This document shows positions 15,011 to 30,594 of a stretch of 64,000 nucleotides of DNA, in pieces. The first letter of the stretch is position 1, and every line of letters starts with the position of its first letter. The DNA is taken from the NCBI RefSeq assembly GCF_017348835.2, contig NZ_CP071375.1. One strand, 5' to 3'. The position numbers and the translations under genes are program-made. Under the pieces are notes generated by a model. It was not told where the DNA came from, did no database searches, and saw nothing but the letters and a program-made list of their open reading frames with translations. This stretch comes from Escherichia coli (GTDB lineage Bacteria; Pseudomonadota; Gammaproteobacteria; Enterobacterales; Enterobacteriaceae).

Positions 15011-15087
15011 GCGCCCTTAGCTCAGTTGGATAGAGCAACGACCTTCTAAGTCGTGGGCCGCAGGTTCGAATCCTGCAGGGCGCGCCA
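15011..15087 (+). tRNA. argU: tRNA-Arg (anticodon UCU)
   Basis: 77-nt sequence gcgcccttagctcagttggatagagcaacgaccttctaagtcgtgggccgcaggttcgaatcctgcagggcgcgcca with TCT anticodon and GTTCGAATC T-loop. Confidence 0.95.
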
Positions 15088-15102: not shown

Positions 15103-16265
15103 TTACGCCTTCTTTATATCCTCCATAATTCCACAGTGGGACATATTTGGGACATGATCACCAAAAATGTCGTCTATTTTCCTTGCATGCTCTGTCAAAT
15201 GATTAGGCGCAAGGTGAGCATACCTACGAACCATTTCTATGGACTCCCATCCGCCCATTTCCTGAAGCACAGATAATGGGACGCCTGACTGGATCAGCCA
15301 GCTTGCCCAGGTGTGTCTGAGGTCATGGAAACGGAAATCTTCAATTCCTGCACGACGACAAGCTGATAGCCATGATGTCTTGCTGTCGATGCGCATCTTC
15401 CTGACCGCAGGCGTTGATGTTCCATCTGCTCGCTTAGCCGCCTTGGTATGTACAAACACCCATTTGTGATGCTTGCCTATTTGATCACGCAACACTTTAC
15501 AGGCGGTATCGTTCAGCGCCACACCAATGGCGCGGTTTGATTTGCTCTCTTCTGGATTCACCCAGGCAACTCGTCGCTGCATGTCGATTTGTTGCCATTC
15601 CAGATTTATGATGTTCGACTTTCTCAGACCAGTTGCCAGCGCAAACTTGACGACAGATTTCAGTGGTTCGGGGCACTCATCAATAAGGCGTTTTGCTTCC
15701 TCCTTTTCCAGCCATCTGACTCGCTTGTTTCTGACCGCTGGTATCTTGATGACAGGCGCTTTTTCCAGCCACTTCCAGTCGCGTTCTGCAGCACGGAGAA
15801 TGGCCTTTATCATGGCAAGATGCTTTGCCTTTGTCTGAGTTGATACTGGCTTTGGTTCATAAACAGGCGGTTCTTTACCTTTCCTGATGGCGGCCTGAAC
15901 TTTCTGTTTCCATATTTCTTTCGTCTTTCTGTTATGCATTCTGCTTACAGCAGAGTAAATCTTTGCCTCCGAGATATCTTTAAGCCTTATACCCTCAAAA
16001 TGTTCAAGCCAGAACTCAATCCGGCTTTTATCTGAATCGAGAGATTTTTATCAGCTTTTTCCTCAAGCCATCTTAGGCAGGCCTCTTCAAAAGTGACATC
16101 AGGTAAATCCCCTAGCTTTTCTACTCGCCAGAGTTCTGCTTTTCGCTTGTCGTGCAACTCCTGAGCTTGCCGCTTGTCCTTTGTGCCAAGAGATTCCTTA
16201 ATTCGTTTCCCGCCCGGGAGCGAATACGAGGCATACCATATTTCATTTCTGCGGAAGAGTGACAT
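15103..16265 (-). pseudogene. int: tyrosine integrase disrupted by a 1-nt frameshift
   Basis: N-terminal ORF (16265 to 15987) and catalytic C-terminal ORF (15939 to 15103, with R..HxxR..Y motifs) are in different frames; C-terminal frame is open upstream to a TAA at 16048-16050; frames meet at T5 homopolymer 16045-16049. Confidence 0.8.
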
Positions 16266-25285: not shown

Positions 25286-26281
25286 GTGAACGTGAGAGCG
25301 CTACTGACCCCCGAGATTGCCCCGCGTATGGGGATCGTATTGTTCAGACCCGGTTCAGAGCTGATGCCCCTGTTTATGCAGGGGCGTGTCCTGCTGGAGC
25401 CTGAGCCGGAACGTTATTCATCTTTTGCCAGTGGTGCCGTTCCGGCTGCATCACAACCGCTGGCGGATGATCCTGCCGTTCGGGCCGTGTTCCGCAATGA
25501 GGCAGTGATCCGTCGTGCTGGTGGCGTGGAATGTCTTGAAAGCTGGTTACTTCGTGAAAAAGGCTGCCAGTGGCCTCATTCCGACTGGCACAGCGAGAAC
25601 ATGACCACAATGCGACACGCGCCGGGCGCAATCCGTCTGTGCTGGCACTGCGATAACCAACTGCGCGATCAGTTCACGGAACGGCTGGAATCAATGGCAA
25701 CGGATAACTGTGCCCGCTGGGTGTTGTCTGTTGTGCGTCGGGATCTCGGTTTTGATGACAGTCACGTTGTGACAATGCCGGAACTGTGCTGGTGGCTGAT
25801 TCGTAATGATCTGGCGGATACCTTACCGGAAAGTGCAGCCCGTAAGGCACTGAGATTACCGAAGCCTTTTGTGCCGTCTGTCACCCGGGAAAGTGACCTG
25901 GTGCCTTCGGTTCCTGCCACCAGCATCATCCAGAATAAAGCGAAAAAGGTGCTGGCGCTGAAAGTGGATCCGGAGTCGCCGGACTCTTTTATGTTACGCC
26001 CAAAACGTCGCCGCTGGGTTAATGAAAAGTACACGCGATGGGTTAAGACGCAGCCGTGCGCATGTTGTGGAAAACCTGCTGATGATCCCCACCACCTGAT
26101 AGGCCACGGTCAGGGTGGAATGGGGACAAAAGCGCATGACCTCTTTGTGTTGCCTTTGTGCAGAAAGCATCACGACGAGCTGCATGCGGATACTGTGGCA
26201 TTCGAAGAGAAGTATGGCTCCCAGCTGGAGCTGATATTTCGTTTTATCGATCGTGCGCTGGCGATTGGTGTGCTGGCCTGA
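25286..26281 (+). CDS. DUF968-like prophage protein with C-terminal Cys/His (HNH-like) cluster
   Basis: 331-aa; C-terminus [18 protein letters not shown]...CRKHHDELH. Confidence 0.55.
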
Positions 26282-26298
26282 TTTTGTGGAGAAAGTTG

Positions 26299-26682
26299 AT
26301 GCGTGATATTCAGATGGTTCTTGAGCGTTGGGGAGCGTGGGCGGCTAATAATCATGAAGATGTGACTTGGTCGTCCATTGCCGCCGGTTTTAAGGGATTA
26401 ATTCCTTCAAAAGTAAAATCTCGCCCACAATGTTGTGACGATGACGCGATGATCATTTGCGGGTGCATGGCCCGTCTGAAAAAGAACAACAGCGACTTGC
26501 ACGATTTATTAGTAGATTATTATGTAGTCGGTATGACATTCATGTCACTGGCAGGTAAGCATTGCTGCTCTGATGGTTATATCGGGAAAAGGTTACAGAA
26601 GGCTGAGGGCATAATTGAAGGGATGTTAATGGCATTAGATATCCGGTTAGAGATGGATATCGTTGTTAATAACTCTAATTAA
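26299..26682 (+). CDS. quuD: late-gene antiterminator Q (DLP12 quuD-like)
   Basis: 127-aa product from ATG 26299 ([22 protein letters not shown]...); position before the lysis cassette. Confidence 0.75.
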
Positions 26683-26715
26683 TATGCCAATTGTTTACTA
26701 AAAATTATTAAAAAT

Positions 26716-26733
26716 GGGGCGTTGCAACGCCCC
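26716..26733. terminator. 18-bp perfect palindrome hairpin between Q and nmpC
   Basis: ggggcgttg/caacgcccc; T-rich tract on the minus-strand side. Confidence 0.4.
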
Positions 26734-26829
26734 CAAAAATAAAGGGTAATATATAACAGAAGGTTTATATAGTTAGAAGCAAGGTTGTGCTCCTAAAGGA
26801 AGTGGCTTGAGGGAGCCACTTATATGTTG

Positions 26830-26860
26830 GGGAGGCAAAGCCTCCCGCAACATATCTTTT
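26830..26860 (+). terminator. candidate tR'-like terminator downstream of Q
   Basis: Stem ggaggc/gcctcc (26830-26846) followed by TTTT at 26857-26860. Confidence 0.35.
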
Positions 26861-26870
26861 AGTAATCAAA

Positions 26871-27953
26871 TTAGAACTGGTAAACCATACCTACAGCAAC
26901 GATATCATCGGTAGCAACGCCAGATGCTTTCGTGAAATCGCTCTTATCAATCAGGTTGATTTTGTAATCAACAAAAGTGGACATATTTTTGTTGAAGTAA
27001 TAGGTTGCACCTACATCAATATATTCAACCAGGTCCTGATCACCCCACGCACCCAAGTCTTTTCCTTTAGATTGCAGGTAAGCAACGGACGGACGCAGAC
27101 CGAAGTCGAACTGATATTGTGCAACTACTTCGAAGTTTTGTGCTTTGTTGGCAATATGGTTATTACCAAAAACAGTCATGTTCTGGGTTTCAGAATAGGT
27201 GGTAGCCAGATAGATGTTGTTCGCATCATATTTCAGACCAGCTGCCCATACTTCAGCATTTTGACCAGATGCATTCAGGCTGTTGTTACCGTAGATAACC
27301 TGATTATTAGTGCGGTCAGATTTAGCATAGGTTGCACCTACACCGAATCCTTCATACTCATACGTAGTGGAGAAACCGAAACCATCACCATTAGCTTCAG
27401 TTACGTCAGTGCGGTCATTTTTACCCTGATACTGAGCAGCAAAGTTCAGACCATCAACCAGACCAAAGAAGTCGTTGTTACGATAAGTTGCAACACCAGT
27501 GGTGCGACCAGTCATGAACACATCTGTTTGGGTCCAGGTATCGCCACCGAATTCTGGCAGAACGTCAGTCCACGCACCGATGTCATATGCTACACCGTAG
27601 TTACGGCCGTAATCGATTGAGCCGTAGTCCCCGAATTTCAGGCCTGCAAATGCAAGACGGGTTTTGTCTTTGGAGGAGCCTTGAGATTCAGCGCGGTTGC
27701 CTTTGAATTCATATTCCCACTGACCGAAACCAGTCAGTTGATCGTTGATTTGGGTTTCACCTTTGAAGCCAAGACGGGCATAAGTAGTATCACCATCATC
27801 TGCATCATTAGAGGAGAAGTAGTGCTTGGCATTAACTTTCCCATATAGATCCAGCTTGTTACTGTCTTTATTATAAATTTCAGCTGCCTGAGCAGACATC
27901 GCCATCAGTACTGATGCGGCTACAGCAGAAATTGCCACTGTTAATTTTTTCAT
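26871..27953 (-). CDS. nmpC: outer membrane general porin (NmpC/OmpD-like), intact
   Basis: 360-aa 16-strand porin with signal peptide and C-terminal ...VGMVYQF. Confidence 0.9.
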
Positions 27954-28541
27954 CGTGAGCCCTTTTTTTTGAACTATTATTAAAAAATGATGTCACTGCG
28001 CGATAAATATTCATCTAATCAATGTGATTATTTCAAGATGTAAGTTTTAGTTTCTCATTTAATTTGTGAGGTAGATCTCTATTTTTATCTGAACTTTTTC
28101 TATCGAAACCTATTTATGGCTCTTATTTGAACAAAAATAAACCTATTAGCTAATTTATATTAATGGCTGTTATTTATGGAGGTTCTATAATTCGGCGGTT
28201 TAATTTAAATCAACTAAAAATAACGGCGGAAATTATTTGTAGGATATTTGTTGAGGTTTTCTTATGTATTTGTGGTGGTGTTTTGAACACTCGGTAGCAT
28301 TCTCATAAATATCATTCAGTGGTTTACGTACGTAAAAAATTGGTTATGCTGTTAAGAGTGGTTACTTCGTCACACAGCTTAAACCCGCCGTCGAGCTGGT
28401 TTTTCCATTTTTTGAGTCTCGATATTAGCTGATAACTCAATACCTGAGTTATTCACTGACTCCGAGTCTGTTACGTTTCTGCTTTTTTGCGATACGTTGT
28501 ATTCCCTCAATTTACACCCGCTTTGTCTGCGAGGTGGGGTT

Positions 28542-28757
28542 ATGAAATCCATGGATAAGTTAACAACGGGTGTCGCCTATGGCACCTCAGCAGGTAGTGC
28601 CGGTTACTGGTTTTTACAGCTGCTCGATAAAGTTACGCCCTCACAGTGGGCAGCAATAGGTGTGCTGGGTAGCCTGGTATTTGGCCTGCTGACGTACCTG
28701 ACAAACCTTTATTTCAAGATTAAAGAAGATAAGCGCAAGGCTGCGAGAGGTGAATAA
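28542..28757 (+). CDS. essD: pinholin (phage 21 S-like) with dual start
   Basis: 71-aa with MKSMDK dual-start motif (ATG 28542 and 28551), RBS gaggtgggg, two TM segments. Confidence 0.85.
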
Positions 28758-29254
28758 TGCCTCCATCATTACGAAAAGCCGTTGCTGCTGCTATTGGTGG
28801 CGGAGCAATTGCTATAGCATCAGTGTTAATCACTGGCCCAAGTGGTAACGATGGTCTGGAAGGTGTCAGCTACATACCATACAAAGATATTGTTGGTGTA
28901 TGGACTGTATGTCACGGGCATACAGGAAAAGACATCATGCTCGGTAAAACGTATACCAAAGCAGAATGCAAAGCACTCTTGAATAAAGACCTTGCCACTG
29001 TCGCCAGACAAATTAACCCGTACATCGAAGTCGATATACCGGAAACAACGCGCGGCGCTCTTTACTCATTCGTTTACAACGTGGGTGCTGGCAATTTCAG
29101 AACATCGACGCTTCTTCGCAAAATAAACCAGGGCGATATCAAAGGCGCATGTGATCAGCTACGTCGCTGGACATACGCTGGCGGTAAGCAATGGAAAGGC
29201 CTGATGACTCGCCGTGAGATTGAGCGTGAAATCTGTTTGTGGGGTCAGCAATGA
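28757..29254 (+). CDS. rrrD: SAR endolysin (lysozyme)
   Basis: 165-aa; N-terminal signal-anchor-release segment, T4-lysozyme-like catalytic region. Confidence 0.85.
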
Positions 29255-29712
29255 ACAGAGTAACCGCGATTATCTCCGCTCTGGTTATCTGCATCATCGT
29301 CTGCCTGTCATGGGCTGTTAATCATTACCGTGATAACGCCATTACCTACAAAGCCCAGCGCGACAAAAATGCCAGAGAACTGAAGCTGGCGAACGCCACC
29401 ATTACTGACATGCAGCAGCGCCAGCGTGATGTTGCTGCACTGGATGAAAAATACACGAAGGAGTTAGCTAATGCGAAAGCTGAAAATGATGCTCTGCGTG
29501 ATGATGTTGCCGCTGGTCGTCGTCGGTTGCACATCAAAGCAGTCTGTCAGTCAGTGCGTGAAGCCACCACCGCCTCCGGCGTGGATAATGCAGCCTCCCC
29601 CCGACTGGCAGACACCGCTGAACGGGATTATTTCACCCTCAGAGAGAGGCTGATCACTATGCAAAAACAACTGGAAGGAACCCAGAAGTATATTAATGAG
29701 CAGTGCAGATAG
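29251..29712 (+). CDS. rzpD: spanin inner-membrane subunit (Rz)
   Basis: 153-aa from ATG 29251 overlapping the endolysin stop; N-terminal TM plus coiled-coil. Confidence 0.8.
29471..29653 (+). CDS. rzoD: spanin outer-membrane lipoprotein (Rz1) embedded in Rz in +1 frame
   Basis: 60-aa with lipobox (LVVVGC) and Pro-rich segment, wholly inside Rz. Confidence 0.75.
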
Positions 29713-29743
29713 AGCTGCCCATATCGATGGGCAACTCATGCAA

Positions 29744-30037
29744 TTATTGTGAGCAATACACACGCGCTTCCAGCGGAGTATAAATGCCTAAAGTAATAAA
29801 ACCGAGCAATCCATTTACGAATGTTTGCTGGGTTTCTGTTTTAACAACATTTTCTGCGCCGCCACAAATTTTGGCTGCATCAACAGTTTTCTCCTGTCCA
29901 ATTCCCGAAACGAAGAAGTGATGGGTGATGGTTTCCTTTGGTGTTACTGCTGTCGGTTTGTTTCCAACAGTAAACGTCTGTTGAGCACATCCTGTAATAA
30001 GCATTGCCAGAGCGGCAGAAAACAACATTTTTTTCAT
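29744..30037 (-). CDS. bor: Bor lipoprotein
   Basis: 97-aa from ATG 30035-30037 (MKKMLFSAALAMLITGC lipobox). Confidence 0.85.
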   Translation of the reverse strand: MKKMLFSAALAMLITGCAQQTFTVGNKPTAVTPKETITHHFFVSGIGQEKTVDAAKICGGAENVVKTETQQTFVNGLLGFITLGIYTPLEARVYCSQ

Positions 30038-30399
30038 CTTATTATCCTGCATTGTTAAAAACGGCAGAATCCTATGTGACAACAATTAAACGATAATTAA
30101 ATGGATTGATGAAAATTAAAACTATATAGGTGTACGCTCAGACTATTGGAGGAAGTTGGGGACACTCAGAATCCTGTGGAATGAAATAAACCGGTCTATC
30201 CGTCTATTACCCTTTTAGCTGCGCTGTATCGTCGCCGTATTCCCGCATTAACCATGACCGTAGCCCGACGGGGAATTCCTTCTGCGTGAGTGTGCGGGAA
30301 TAATCAAAAACGATGCACACCGGGTTTTACTGTGCTGACAGACGCAGGGTTACCCTCATAGTCGCTTTTCCGGTGCGATGGTGGAAGAAACCGGGATGT

Positions 30400-30594
30400 T
30401 TATTCATCATCACTTTGGATTGATGTATATGCTCTCTTTTCTGACGTTAGTCTCCGACGGCAGGCTTCAATGACCCAGGCTGAGAAATTCCCGGACCCTT
30501 TTTGCTCAAGAGCGATGTTAATTTGTTCAATCATTTGGTTAGGAAAGCGGATGTTGCGGGTTGTTGTTCTGCGGGTTCTGTTCTTAGTTGACAT
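30400..30594 (-). CDS. DUF3950-family small protein (YlcI-like)
   Basis: 64-aa basic N-terminus; between bor and cos. Confidence 0.55.
   Translation of the reverse strand: MSTKNRTRRTTTRNIRFPNQMIEQINIALEQKGSGNFSAWVIEACRRRLTSEKRAYTSIQSDDE

Follow-up and report, generated by a model that had tools for sequence, protein, structure and literature searches.

An intact nmpC/lc porin unit with an IpeX-like tail between Q and the candidate late promoter of an Escherichia coli prophage

Introduction

The stretch of Escherichia coli DNA analysed here (64,000 nucleotides of contig NZ_CP071375.1, hereafter the window) carries a lambdoid prophage in which a porin gene lies, on the opposite strand, between the gene for the antiterminator Q and the lysis genes. 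This arrangement raises the question of where the late transcription modified by Q starts, and whether it has to pass antisense through the porin gene on its way to the lysis genes. It also raises the question of what the palindromic sequences between Q and the porin stop codon are. We put the probability at roughly 0.8 that the window holds an intact nmpC/lc cargo unit with an IpeX tail, placed between Q and the late promoter pR', and that late transcription starts beyond this unit.

Identity, intactness and frequency of the porin gene

The porin gene occupies positions 26871-27953 on the minus strand and encodes a 360-aa precursor of the nmpC/lc type, as judged from its open reading frame (ORF), Pfam, solved porin chains and alignment to the K-12 gene. 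The initial annotation had taken the frame to be full length, and this held: no internal stop was found, the Porin_1 model (PF00267) matched over its entire length (1-337 of 337, E = 3.1e-153), and the gene was colinear with K-12 nmpC. Its position between Q and the lysis genes, antisense to both, was likewise as annotated, with Q ending at 26682 and the holin ATG at 28542. Compared with solved OmpC, OmpK36, PhoE and OmpF chains, the protein aligned from residue 24, the start of the mature chain, to the C-terminal Phe; solved OmpK37, OmpC and PhoE chains were matched with E of about 1e-134 to 1e-137. A signal peptide at the N-terminus is indicated by sequence reading and by the mature-chain start at residue 24, and the C-terminus reads ...VYQF. 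By sequence, the predicted product belongs to the general bacterial porins (OmpC/OmpF/PhoE/NmpC/Lc/OmpD).

The DLP12 (qsr') prophage of K-12 shares with the window prophage its site (the argU tRNA, beside the sfm/fimZ genes) and its gene order (quuD, porin, essD, rrrD, rzpD, bor/iss). The Q-to-S stretch of DLP12 was 91.3% identical to the window in one alignment block of 2476 columns. The disruption of K-12 nmpC by IS5, as stated in the initial annotation, proved correct: after removal of IS5 and its 4-bp duplication, the window gene was colinear with a K-12 ORF of 365 aa, and 329 of the 365 aligned positions were identical (90%). Compared with K-12, the window porin lacks IS5, has 360 rather than 365 aa, and carries substitutions and two short deletions, which we take to lie in surface loops. 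The window prophage also differs from DLP12 in having retained its head and tail genes.

The exact porin protein was found on at least 1000 contigs, where the source names were porin OmpD, outer membrane porin protein LC or porin OmpC. The Q-porin-holin module was present in 2397 of 5426 complete E. coli genomes and also in 36 phage records; an nmpC/lc prophage porin in this gene order is thus ordinary and already known, being carried by almost half of the complete genomes. Among alleles, residues 1-147 were nearly invariant (three variable positions), and the differences clustered in five short C-terminal segments, presumably surface loops in the general porin topology. The Lc porin of the lambdoid phage PA-2 is a phage-borne general porin that is expressed in lysogens and replaces OmpC. 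Its likeness to the window porin is one of name and description and comes from the LC label that database sources give to the exact window protein. A record named 'phage PA2' was considered as a source of the Lc sequence and rejected as an unrelated Stx phage.

The region upstream of the porin (27954-28321, minus strand) is AT-rich (27-32% GC) and is presumed from composition and sequence to hold the porin's promoter. A consensus scan of 26200-28800 gave no 9-of-12 promoter, and inspection of the minus strand yielded the candidates TTGAAA and AATATT with a poor 19-nt spacer. We consider it unlikely that the porin is silent in the window strain, carried along intact but not expressed in a prophage that is undergoing decay. 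The upstream region does appear to be of the AT-rich kind that is usually silenced by H-NS, the integrase is split into two ORFs, so that the prophage may be decaying, and the title of a cited paper terms nmpC 'quiescent' in E. coli B. However, the ORF is intact and its exact sequence widespread, and the near-invariant first 147 residues with clustered C-terminal changes fit a gene under selection. Intact nmpC alleles are, moreover, strongly expressed at 37 °C in CFT073, at both the RNA and the protein level.

Hairpins and the porin 3' UTR

Two hairpins had been annotated between Q and the porin stop codon (26871-26873), and the coordinates bear this out. The first is exactly the perfect 18-bp palindrome at 26716-26733 that had been described (GGGGCGTTG/CAACGCCCC). 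The second, annotated as a hairpin and T-tract at 26830-26860, has the core GGGAGGC/GCCTCCC (26830-26846) within a longer stem (26822-26855), followed by CTTTT (26856-26860). The promoter and terminator scan of 26200-28800 called a terminator at the palindrome on the minus strand; from scan and fold, we read positions 26700-26733 (minus strand) as the Rho-independent terminator of the porin/IpeX transcript, consisting of the stem-loop at 26716-26733 and the T-run ATTTTTAATAATTTTT at 26715-26700. Its 7-bp GC stem (-13.9 kcal/mol) was modest when folded alone (z about -2). The tail of the palindrome on the plus strand is A-rich, and the palindrome is therefore not a terminator in that direction.

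Between the porin stop codon and the terminator lies a 3' UTR of 167-171 nt. Taken as 171 nt, it folded with -63.2 kcal/mol (z = -8.35). The twin hairpins recognised within it from the fold and the palindrome listing (26800-26855, with stems at 26800-26821 and 26822-26855) folded with -37.6 kcal/mol (z = -6.4), which none of 200 shuffles equalled. The hairpin at 26800-26821 is a third one, absent from the initial annotation. Between the hairpins there are about 110 nt of conserved sequence with two further predicted helices.

Variation was assessed over 20 distinct homologous spacers. In the terminator hairpin it was confined to the loop (TGCA, TGAG or GGAA), so that conservation concerns a 7-bp stem capped by a tetraloop; a perfect palindrome of 18 bp is specific to the window allele. 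In the second hairpin, nearly all changes fell in the loop or in a bulge. No compensatory base changes were seen in the hairpin stems of these 20 spacers, in which variation was low and located mainly in the loops and the bulge.

Together with both stop codons, the spacer was identical to the quuD-nmpC spacer of DLP12 at 185 of 192 positions (96%). In DLP12, the IpeX RNA is said to have been placed by Castillo-Keller, Vuong and Misra in 2006 between the nmpC stop codon and a Rho-independent terminator. A review gives its length as 167 nt, which the 3' UTR distance in the window fits, and later papers describe it as a repressor of OmpC and OmpF that acts after transcription. Compared with IpeX of DLP12, the terminator loop is changed from TGAG to TGCA in the window, which yields the perfect palindrome, and there are six other small differences. 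By location and sequence, the structured 3' UTR at 26704-26870 (minus strand, about 167 nt, ends approximate) is the predicted equivalent of IpeX, and repression of OmpC and OmpF by the window allele is putative. The hairpins, which the initial annotation had left unexplained, are on this prediction part of the porin mRNA, namely its structured 3' UTR (the IpeX small RNA of the literature) and the terminator.

The hairpins might instead be mere transcription stops that insulate the convergent Q and porin units and do not act as a regulatory RNA in this allele. We regard this as improbable. The interleaved pair does suit convergent units, with the T-run of the first hairpin on the minus strand and the short T-run of the second on the plus strand, and insulation would also agree with stems free of compensatory changes and with Rfam, where a search of 25500-30500 at E <= 1 returned one chance microRNA match and no family for IpeX or StxS. 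Yet the spacer is 96% identical to a DLP12 sequence with reported IpeX activity, and the conserved sequence and additional helices between the hairpins exceed what insulation needs. Within the IpeX-like 3' UTR that we favour, the second hairpin and its CTTTT(T) could, on the plus strand, still stop transcription leaving Q.

Q, the candidate late promoter and the lysis genes

The Q gene (26299-26682, plus strand) encodes a 127-aa antiterminator of the QuuD type in the Q21/Q933 family, as assigned from Pfam (Phage_antitermQ, E = 8.5e-54), the solved Q21 structure (E = 7.6e-8) and 79-82% identity to Q of Stx phages. A candidate late promoter pR' cognate to QuuD was located by homology and co-variation on the plus strand at 28323-28350 (-35 TTTACG, 28323-28328; 16-nt spacer; -10 TATGCT, 28345-28350). 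It is situated beyond the porin, 1.64 kb from Q, and precedes the holin by about 185 nt. This promoter agrees with the sigma-70 consensus at 8 of 12 positions, just below the cut-off of the consensus scan, which gave no plus-strand promoter in 26200-28800. It carries the 14-bp palindrome TTTACGTACGTAAA (28323-28336, plus strand), a candidate Q-binding element by its co-variation with the Q clade.

The promoter is followed at 28354-28373 (plus strand) by a leader word known from matches in viral contigs, AAGAGTGGTTACNTNGNCAC, here AAGAGTGGTTACTTCGTCAC, which covers about +1 to +20 of the late transcript. Its invariant form AAGAGTGGTTAC occurs as a single copy, at 28354, in the entire Q-to-holin stretch. 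The leader word would be expected to be the place of the sigma-dependent pause and of Q loading; no convincing -10-like hexamer was recognised within it. The lysis genes downstream, both on the plus strand, encode an S21-type holin (28542-28757; Phage_holin_2_1, E = 2e-35) and an endolysin of the Phage_lysozyme family (28757-29254; Phage_lysozyme, E = 2.8e-45).

Positions 28322-28404 shared 76% identity over 83 nt with the sequence that immediately follows Q933, and 90% identity over 60 nt with phage P27. The Stx phages with Q933 (933W, Sakai Sp5) share with the window the -35, the palindrome, the -10, the leader word and the first hairpin. There, the promoter and the end of Q overlap, and transcription proceeds for 258 nt to tR' and continues into tRNAs and stx; in the window, Q and the promoter are 1.64 kb apart, with the antisense porin cargo between them. 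In Sakai Sp5, a TTTACG-16-TATCAT promoter stands 258 nt before the tR' T-run, a distance equal to the published length of StxS. The window leader, in contrast, measures about 185 nt and has no StxS-like sequence; an StxS-like RNA downstream of the window pR' was considered and rejected, as similarity did not extend beyond the first hairpin. In DLP12, a fragment just upstream of essD served in a reporter as the Q-controlled lysis (SRRz) promoter (PMC7918800).

A leader hairpin with T-runs at 28377-28414 (plus strand) is likely tR', as judged from its fold, comparison with K-12 and allele counts. At 28397 the window allele has T instead of the G of K-12, so that the stem contains a mismatch; the window and DLP12 also differ by a 16-nt indel upstream of the holin. 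The common allele folded into an 8-bp hairpin with a T-run at -16.4 kcal/mol, compared with -8.4 kcal/mol (z = +0.7) and an alternative 6-bp stem for the window allele. With the hairpin weakened in this way, the Q dependence of the lysis genes is uncertain here.

The relation between promoter and Q was assessed through the leader word, which had exact matches in at least 120 viral contigs. The Q genes beside it were 42-100% identical to QuuD among the matches listed. A QuuD-family Q lay upstream of the leader word in at least 93 loci, at least 18 times adjacent and at least 75 times behind 0.6-2.4 kb of cargo. In the 93 loci among the matches listed, 16 Q clusters were distinguished, and each cluster had a characteristic palindrome in the -35 to -10 interval, irrespective of how far Q lay from the promoter. 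A Q 83% identical to QuuD had the same TTTACGTACGTAAA directly adjacent. The palindrome is thus a candidate Q-binding element specific to its own Q. Judged from these sequences, adjacency to Q is not a defining feature of pR' in the Q21/Q933 family, because 75 of the 93 related loci among the matches listed also have Q and pR' separated.

The initial annotation had Q-modified late transcription start just downstream of Q and run antisense through the porin, and this part did not stand: no late promoter adjoining Q (26683-26870) was found by eye or motif search, and the pR' homologue lies past the porin. That a pR' nonetheless resides in 26683-26870, with the second hairpin as its tR', has hardly any probability left: it would follow the textbook order of Q and then immediately pR' and tR', and there are a -10-like TAATAT near 26748 and a strong plus-strand hairpin followed by CTTTT at 26822-26860, but the TAATAT has no acceptable -35 at 16-18 nt, the scan gave no promoter, the family's leader word and palindrome are absent near Q, and the promoter specific to this Q clade is at 28323. 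The 26683-26870 stretch, moreover, travels with the porin and not with Q, being missing after Q933, the Q of P27 and the Q of Lambda_ev087. In the last of these phages, a related Q has a promoter-like element paired with a terminator-like one directly behind it, and an antisense lipocalin gene comes next, so that this kind of layout may occur outside the window. Lambda_ev087 was also considered as a porin-free ancestral state and rejected; given its different promoter-like region after Q and its antisense lipocalin gene, it neither supports nor refutes our reading. Since the pR' cognate to this Q sits past the porin, near the holin, late transcription most likely bypasses the porin.

Discussion

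The proposed explanation is that positions 26683-28321 form a self-contained leftward cargo unit (a 'moron') of a lambdoid prophage at the argU/DLP12 site. The unit would comprise its own AT-rich promoter region, the porin, an IpeX 3' UTR and a Rho-independent terminator at the 18-bp palindrome. In the lysogen, we infer, the porin of the window strain is made from its own promoter and reaches the outer membrane, while the IpeX tail of its transcript would lower host OmpC and OmpF post-transcriptionally. Lc-type porins classically exclude OmpC-using phages such as PA-2, and a cell surface re-equipped in this way would be expected to do the same. Q-modified transcription would start close to the holin and head away from the porin, so that only transcription leaving Q itself would reach the porin 3' end. 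With the late promoter past the porin, no head-on conflict of late transcription with the porin gene would arise. Provided that the hairpins represent IpeX and its terminator, a cell with an intact nmpC allele would gain a repressor of host OmpC and OmpF along with the new porin, which is relevant to its susceptibility to phages and to the entry of antibiotics.

Cargo between Q and pR' was antisense in about 19 of 21 distinct types among the matches listed; cargo located after pR' pointed along the late operon in 18 of 20 such loci. The types found between Q and pR' were the nmpC/IpeX porin unit, a ClpP-like protease, DUF6731 proteins, membrane proteins and lipoproteins, along with cargo matching defence candidates, namely a KAP NTPase (PDC-S20) and an ATPase (HEC-04). 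We tentatively suggest, as a possibility that we hold at less than even odds, that the Q-to-pR' gap of QuuD/Q933-family phages is a dedicated exchange slot for lysogen-expressed genes, with the 3' part of Q at one end and the invariant leader of pR' at the other, and that its cargo is almost always directed against Q. A narrow literature search found no earlier paper describing such a slot. If true, it would amount to a strand rule for lysogeny genes versus lytic cargo in lambdoid phages and would offer a place to mine defence genes; the antisense pattern may also aid prophage annotation and the search for such genes.

The lambda morons bor and lom are similar to the proposed unit in that they too have their own promoter and terminator, are expressed from the prophage and encode an envelope protein. 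A bor/iss homologue is present in the window at 29744-30037; unlike the porin, which is located upstream of pR' and outside the late operon, it is an antisense gene within that operon.

The Porin Gene

The porin open reading frame (26871-27953, minus strand, 360 aa) matched the entire Pfam Porin_1 model (E=3e-153). It lies between two plus-strand units, the Q antiterminator gene quuD (26299-26682, 127 aa; Pfam Phage_antitermQ, E=8.5e-54) and the lysis genes, which start with an S21-type holin (28542-28757) and a lysozyme-family endolysin (28757-29254). Solved OmpC, OmpK36, PhoE, and OmpF chains aligned with the product from residue 24 to the C-terminal Phe, and the reading frame thus encodes a complete precursor. 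When IS5 and its 4-bp duplication were removed from the K-12 sequence, the stretch from Q to S aligned with the window as a single block (91.3% identity), and the reconstructed K-12 NmpC (365 aa) was identical to the window porin at 329 of 365 aligned positions; the window gene is therefore an intact nmpC allele. These results bear out the initial annotation, which had described a full-length porin antisense to Q and the lysis genes and equated it with the nmpC gene disrupted by IS5 in K-12.

Among porin alleles of the 360-aa and 365-aa forms, residues 1-147 were nearly invariant, with three variable positions. Differences clustered in five segments (~181-188, 218-236, 267-271, 306-316, and 339-350), which we take to be surface loops, given the general topology of porins. 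This pattern of variation agrees with phage- or immunity-driven selection on what would be a working protein. In strain CFT073, nmpC alleles have been reported to be expressed at 37 °C, as both RNA and protein.

The Spacer between Q and the Porin

Two hairpins had been noted between Q and the porin stop codon, and both were recovered: the 18-bp perfect palindrome exactly at 26716-26733, and the second one, with its T-tract, as a core (26830-26846) within a longer stem (26822-26855) followed by CTTTT. An additional, third hairpin occupies 26800-26821. On the minus strand, ATTTTTAATAATTTTT comes directly after the palindrome, whereas its plus-strand tail is rich in A; the palindrome is therefore the intrinsic terminator of the minus-strand porin transcript. 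Comparison of 20 distinct homologous spacers showed changes to this hairpin in the loop only (TGCA in the window, TGAG in K-12 and the majority, GGAA in a single spacer), so that what is conserved is a 7-bp stem capped by a tetraloop.

The 171-nt stretch bounded by the porin stop codon and the end of the T-run was predicted to fold into a chain of helices (-63.2 kcal/mol, z=-8.35), and the spacer is identical to that of the K-12 cryptic prophage DLP12 at 185 of 192 positions. The ipeX gene was reportedly placed by Castillo-Keller et al. in 2006 between the nmpC stop codon and a predicted Rho-independent terminator, and the same sequence is said to have been found there behind the porin gene lc of phage PA-2. 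IpeX is described as a 167-nt small RNA of DLP12 that lowers OmpC and OmpF. Counted from the porin stop codon, 167 nt end at 26704, inside the terminator T-run. As judged from sequence and position, the hairpins of the spacer are the known IpeX stretch and its terminator.

Position of the Late Promoter

The initial annotation had late transcription start just downstream of Q and read through the porin antisense. A late promoter (pR') directly after Q found no support, and three lines of evidence (homology to a known promoter, co-variation of a promoter palindrome with Q, and a DLP12 reporter) put it past the porin. A motif search found no copy of the conserved leader word (28354-28373 in the window) or of the promoter palindrome described below between Q and the porin, and the stretch between them travels with the porin and not with Q, which places the porin unit outside the late operon. 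By homology to the promoter adjacent to Q933, the Q of Stx phages, the plus-strand pR' was assigned to a -35 element TTTACG (28323-28328) and a -10 element TATGCT (28345-28350) with a 16-nt spacer, ~185 nt before the holin ATG. The surrounding sequence (28322-28404) was 76% identical over 83 nt to that directly after Q933 and 90% identical over 60 nt to phage P27, and QuuD itself was 79-82% identical to the Q proteins of Stx phages. With this homologue of pR' at 28323, on the far side of the porin from Q, antisense read-through of the porin is probably wrong.

In the Sakai Sp5 counterpart (TTTACG-16-TATCAT), a start ~7 nt after the -10 element gives 258 nt to the T-run of the tR' hairpin, equal to the length of the pR' transcript StxS as determined by dRNA-seq and Term-seq (258 nt; PMC7547250). 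In a published DLP12 reporter, the fragment immediately preceding essD drives the lysis operon, and a Q-type antiterminator, RpoE, and Hha are given as regulators of that operon (PMC7918800).

The late leader of the Stx2 phage Sakai Sp5 (L007, 869-896) has a good hairpin and T-run just ~25-50 nt after the start, versus the published 258-nt terminated transcript. Phage Lambda_ev087 (L006, LR597644.1, 4379-5059) encodes a Q with 89% identity to QuuD but a different C-terminus, directly followed by a promoter-like TTGCTG-17-TAATGT, a strong terminator-like hairpin, and an antisense lipocalin (Blc) gene. Late transcription in this phage may cross an antisense cargo gene.

Palindromes Specific to Q

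Scanning viral contigs with the leader word AAGAGTGGTTACNTNGNCAC yielded at least 120 loci. Among the matches listed, a QuuD-family Q (42-100% identical) lay upstream in 93, adjacent to the promoter in 18 and 0.6-2.4 kb away in 75; the remaining 27 mostly had little upstream sequence. In one locus (L065), no Q was detectable in the 3.9 kb upstream of the leader word.

When Q proteins were clustered at 90% identity, every cluster among the matches listed had its own palindrome between -35 and -10, and within a cluster it was constant whatever the gap between Q and promoter. The palindrome of QuuD, TTTACGTACGTAAA, is a perfect 14 bp (28323-28336) overlapping the -35 element, and an 83%-identical Q has the same one directly adjacent. 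Q933 goes with TTTACGATCGTAAA, and more distant Q proteins with GCGTACGC, GCGGTCCGC, TTCGTTACGAA, GTTATAAC, and GGAATTCC. A Q-binding element would be expected to show such cluster specificity, which links the Q gene at 26299 with the promoter at 28323; the palindrome is probably the binding element of this Q family. The Q21 binding element is described as a direct repeat, whereas promoters of the QuuD/Q933 family have a palindrome.

Cargo between Q and the Late Promoter

In 75 of 93 loci among the matches listed (drawn from L008-L127, a redundant sample), 0.6-2.4 kb of cargo separated Q from the AAGAGTGGTTAC leader word. The largest cargo reading frame was antisense to Q in 69 of these 75 loci and, by our count, in ~19 of 21 distinct cargo types. 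In 18 of 20 loci with cargo between pR' and the holin, again among the matches listed, that cargo was co-oriented with the late genes. Antisense cargo included a KAP-family NTPase (match to PADLOC candidate PDC-S20, E=3e-177), an ATPase (HEC-04 match, E=7e-47), a ClpP-like SDH-type protease, DUF6731 proteins, an ion-channel-like membrane protein, and a lipoprotein.

We tentatively propose, at roughly one chance in three, that the gap between Q and pR' is a general slot for genes expressed in the lysogen, filled mostly antisense, with the porin/IpeX unit as one occupant. The slot is bordered by the conserved end of Q on one side and by the invariant pR' leader on the other, and recombination could use these flanks as anchors. 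Avoidance of head-on transcription is an attractive but not proven reason for the strand bias. The bor/iss-type lipoprotein gene (29744-30037, minus strand), located between the spanin genes and cos, is antisense within the late operon and thus a counter-example; the lipocalin gene of Lambda_ev087, apparently downstream of the promoter-terminator pair after Q, would be a second. The cargo pattern is a modest side result, of which a limited literature search found no description.

In a lysogen, the porin would be transcribed leftward from a putative promoter in its own AT-rich upstream region (27-32% GC), with termination at 26700-26733. The protein would act as an alternative general porin, and its 3' UTR would act as IpeX, lowering OmpC and OmpF as described in the literature. 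Phage adsorption and outer-membrane passage would be altered as a result. The PA-2 porin Lc excludes OmpC-specific phages. Upon induction, transcription leaving Q would meet the second hairpin and a short plus-strand T-run and may stop there; Q would then act at 28323-28373, and late transcription would run rightward into the holin.

Prevalence and Prophage Context

Of 5426 complete E. coli genomes, 2397 contained the module of Q, porin, and holin (at least 80% of the query covered), as did 36 phage records. At least 1000 contigs encode exactly this porin protein, which is variously called porin OmpD, outer membrane porin protein LC, or porin OmpC. The porin feature is real and correctly placed, but ordinary, having already been described as nmpC/lc plus IpeX.

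The chromosome of E. coli PE164 was 99.99% identical to window positions 6250-48600, and there the region is a lambdoid prophage at tRNA-Arg, downstream of the sfm/fimZ genes. The integration site is that of DLP12 in K-12. Both prophages share the order quuD, porin, essD, rrrD, rzpD, and bor/iss, but that of the window retains terminase, head, and tail genes. The window prophage has its integrase divided between two reading frames (278 and 92 aa; 15103-16265, minus strand) adjoining the tRNA-Arg (~15011-15087), and the annotation of the PE164 integrase records a frameshift and an internal stop. The prophage has probably lost the ability to excise, though its structural genes look complete.

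Phage 434 isolate 434B (L003, OL657227.1, 177-3768) is a viable phage with the K-12 DLP12 segment of Q, nmpC::IS5, and holin, evidently acquired by recombination with the cryptic prophage of its host. Even with the porin interrupted by IS5, the module thus remains functional in late control and lysis.

The Late Leader

An 8-bp hairpin with a T-run (AACCCGCCGTCGAGCGGGTTTTT, -16.4 kcal/mol) is present in the leader of K-12 and most relatives. At position 28397 (within 28377-28414), the G of K-12 DLP12 and most relatives is replaced in the window by T, creating a stem mismatch that reduces the predicted stability to -8.4 kcal/mol, no better than shuffled sequences; an alternative 6-bp stem forms. 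The T allele was common to 11 of ~36 porin-type viral loci among the matches listed. A terminator scan found no further terminator-like element before the holin. With the leader hairpin weakened, the lysis genes may be less tightly Q-dependent, and in this allele they may be leaky without Q.

The window also has a 16-nt insertion relative to K-12 at ~28476-28495, in the interval that separates the late promoter from the start of the holin gene. Two spacings occur among related loci: the holin follows the leader word at 172 nt in one class and at 188 nt in the other.
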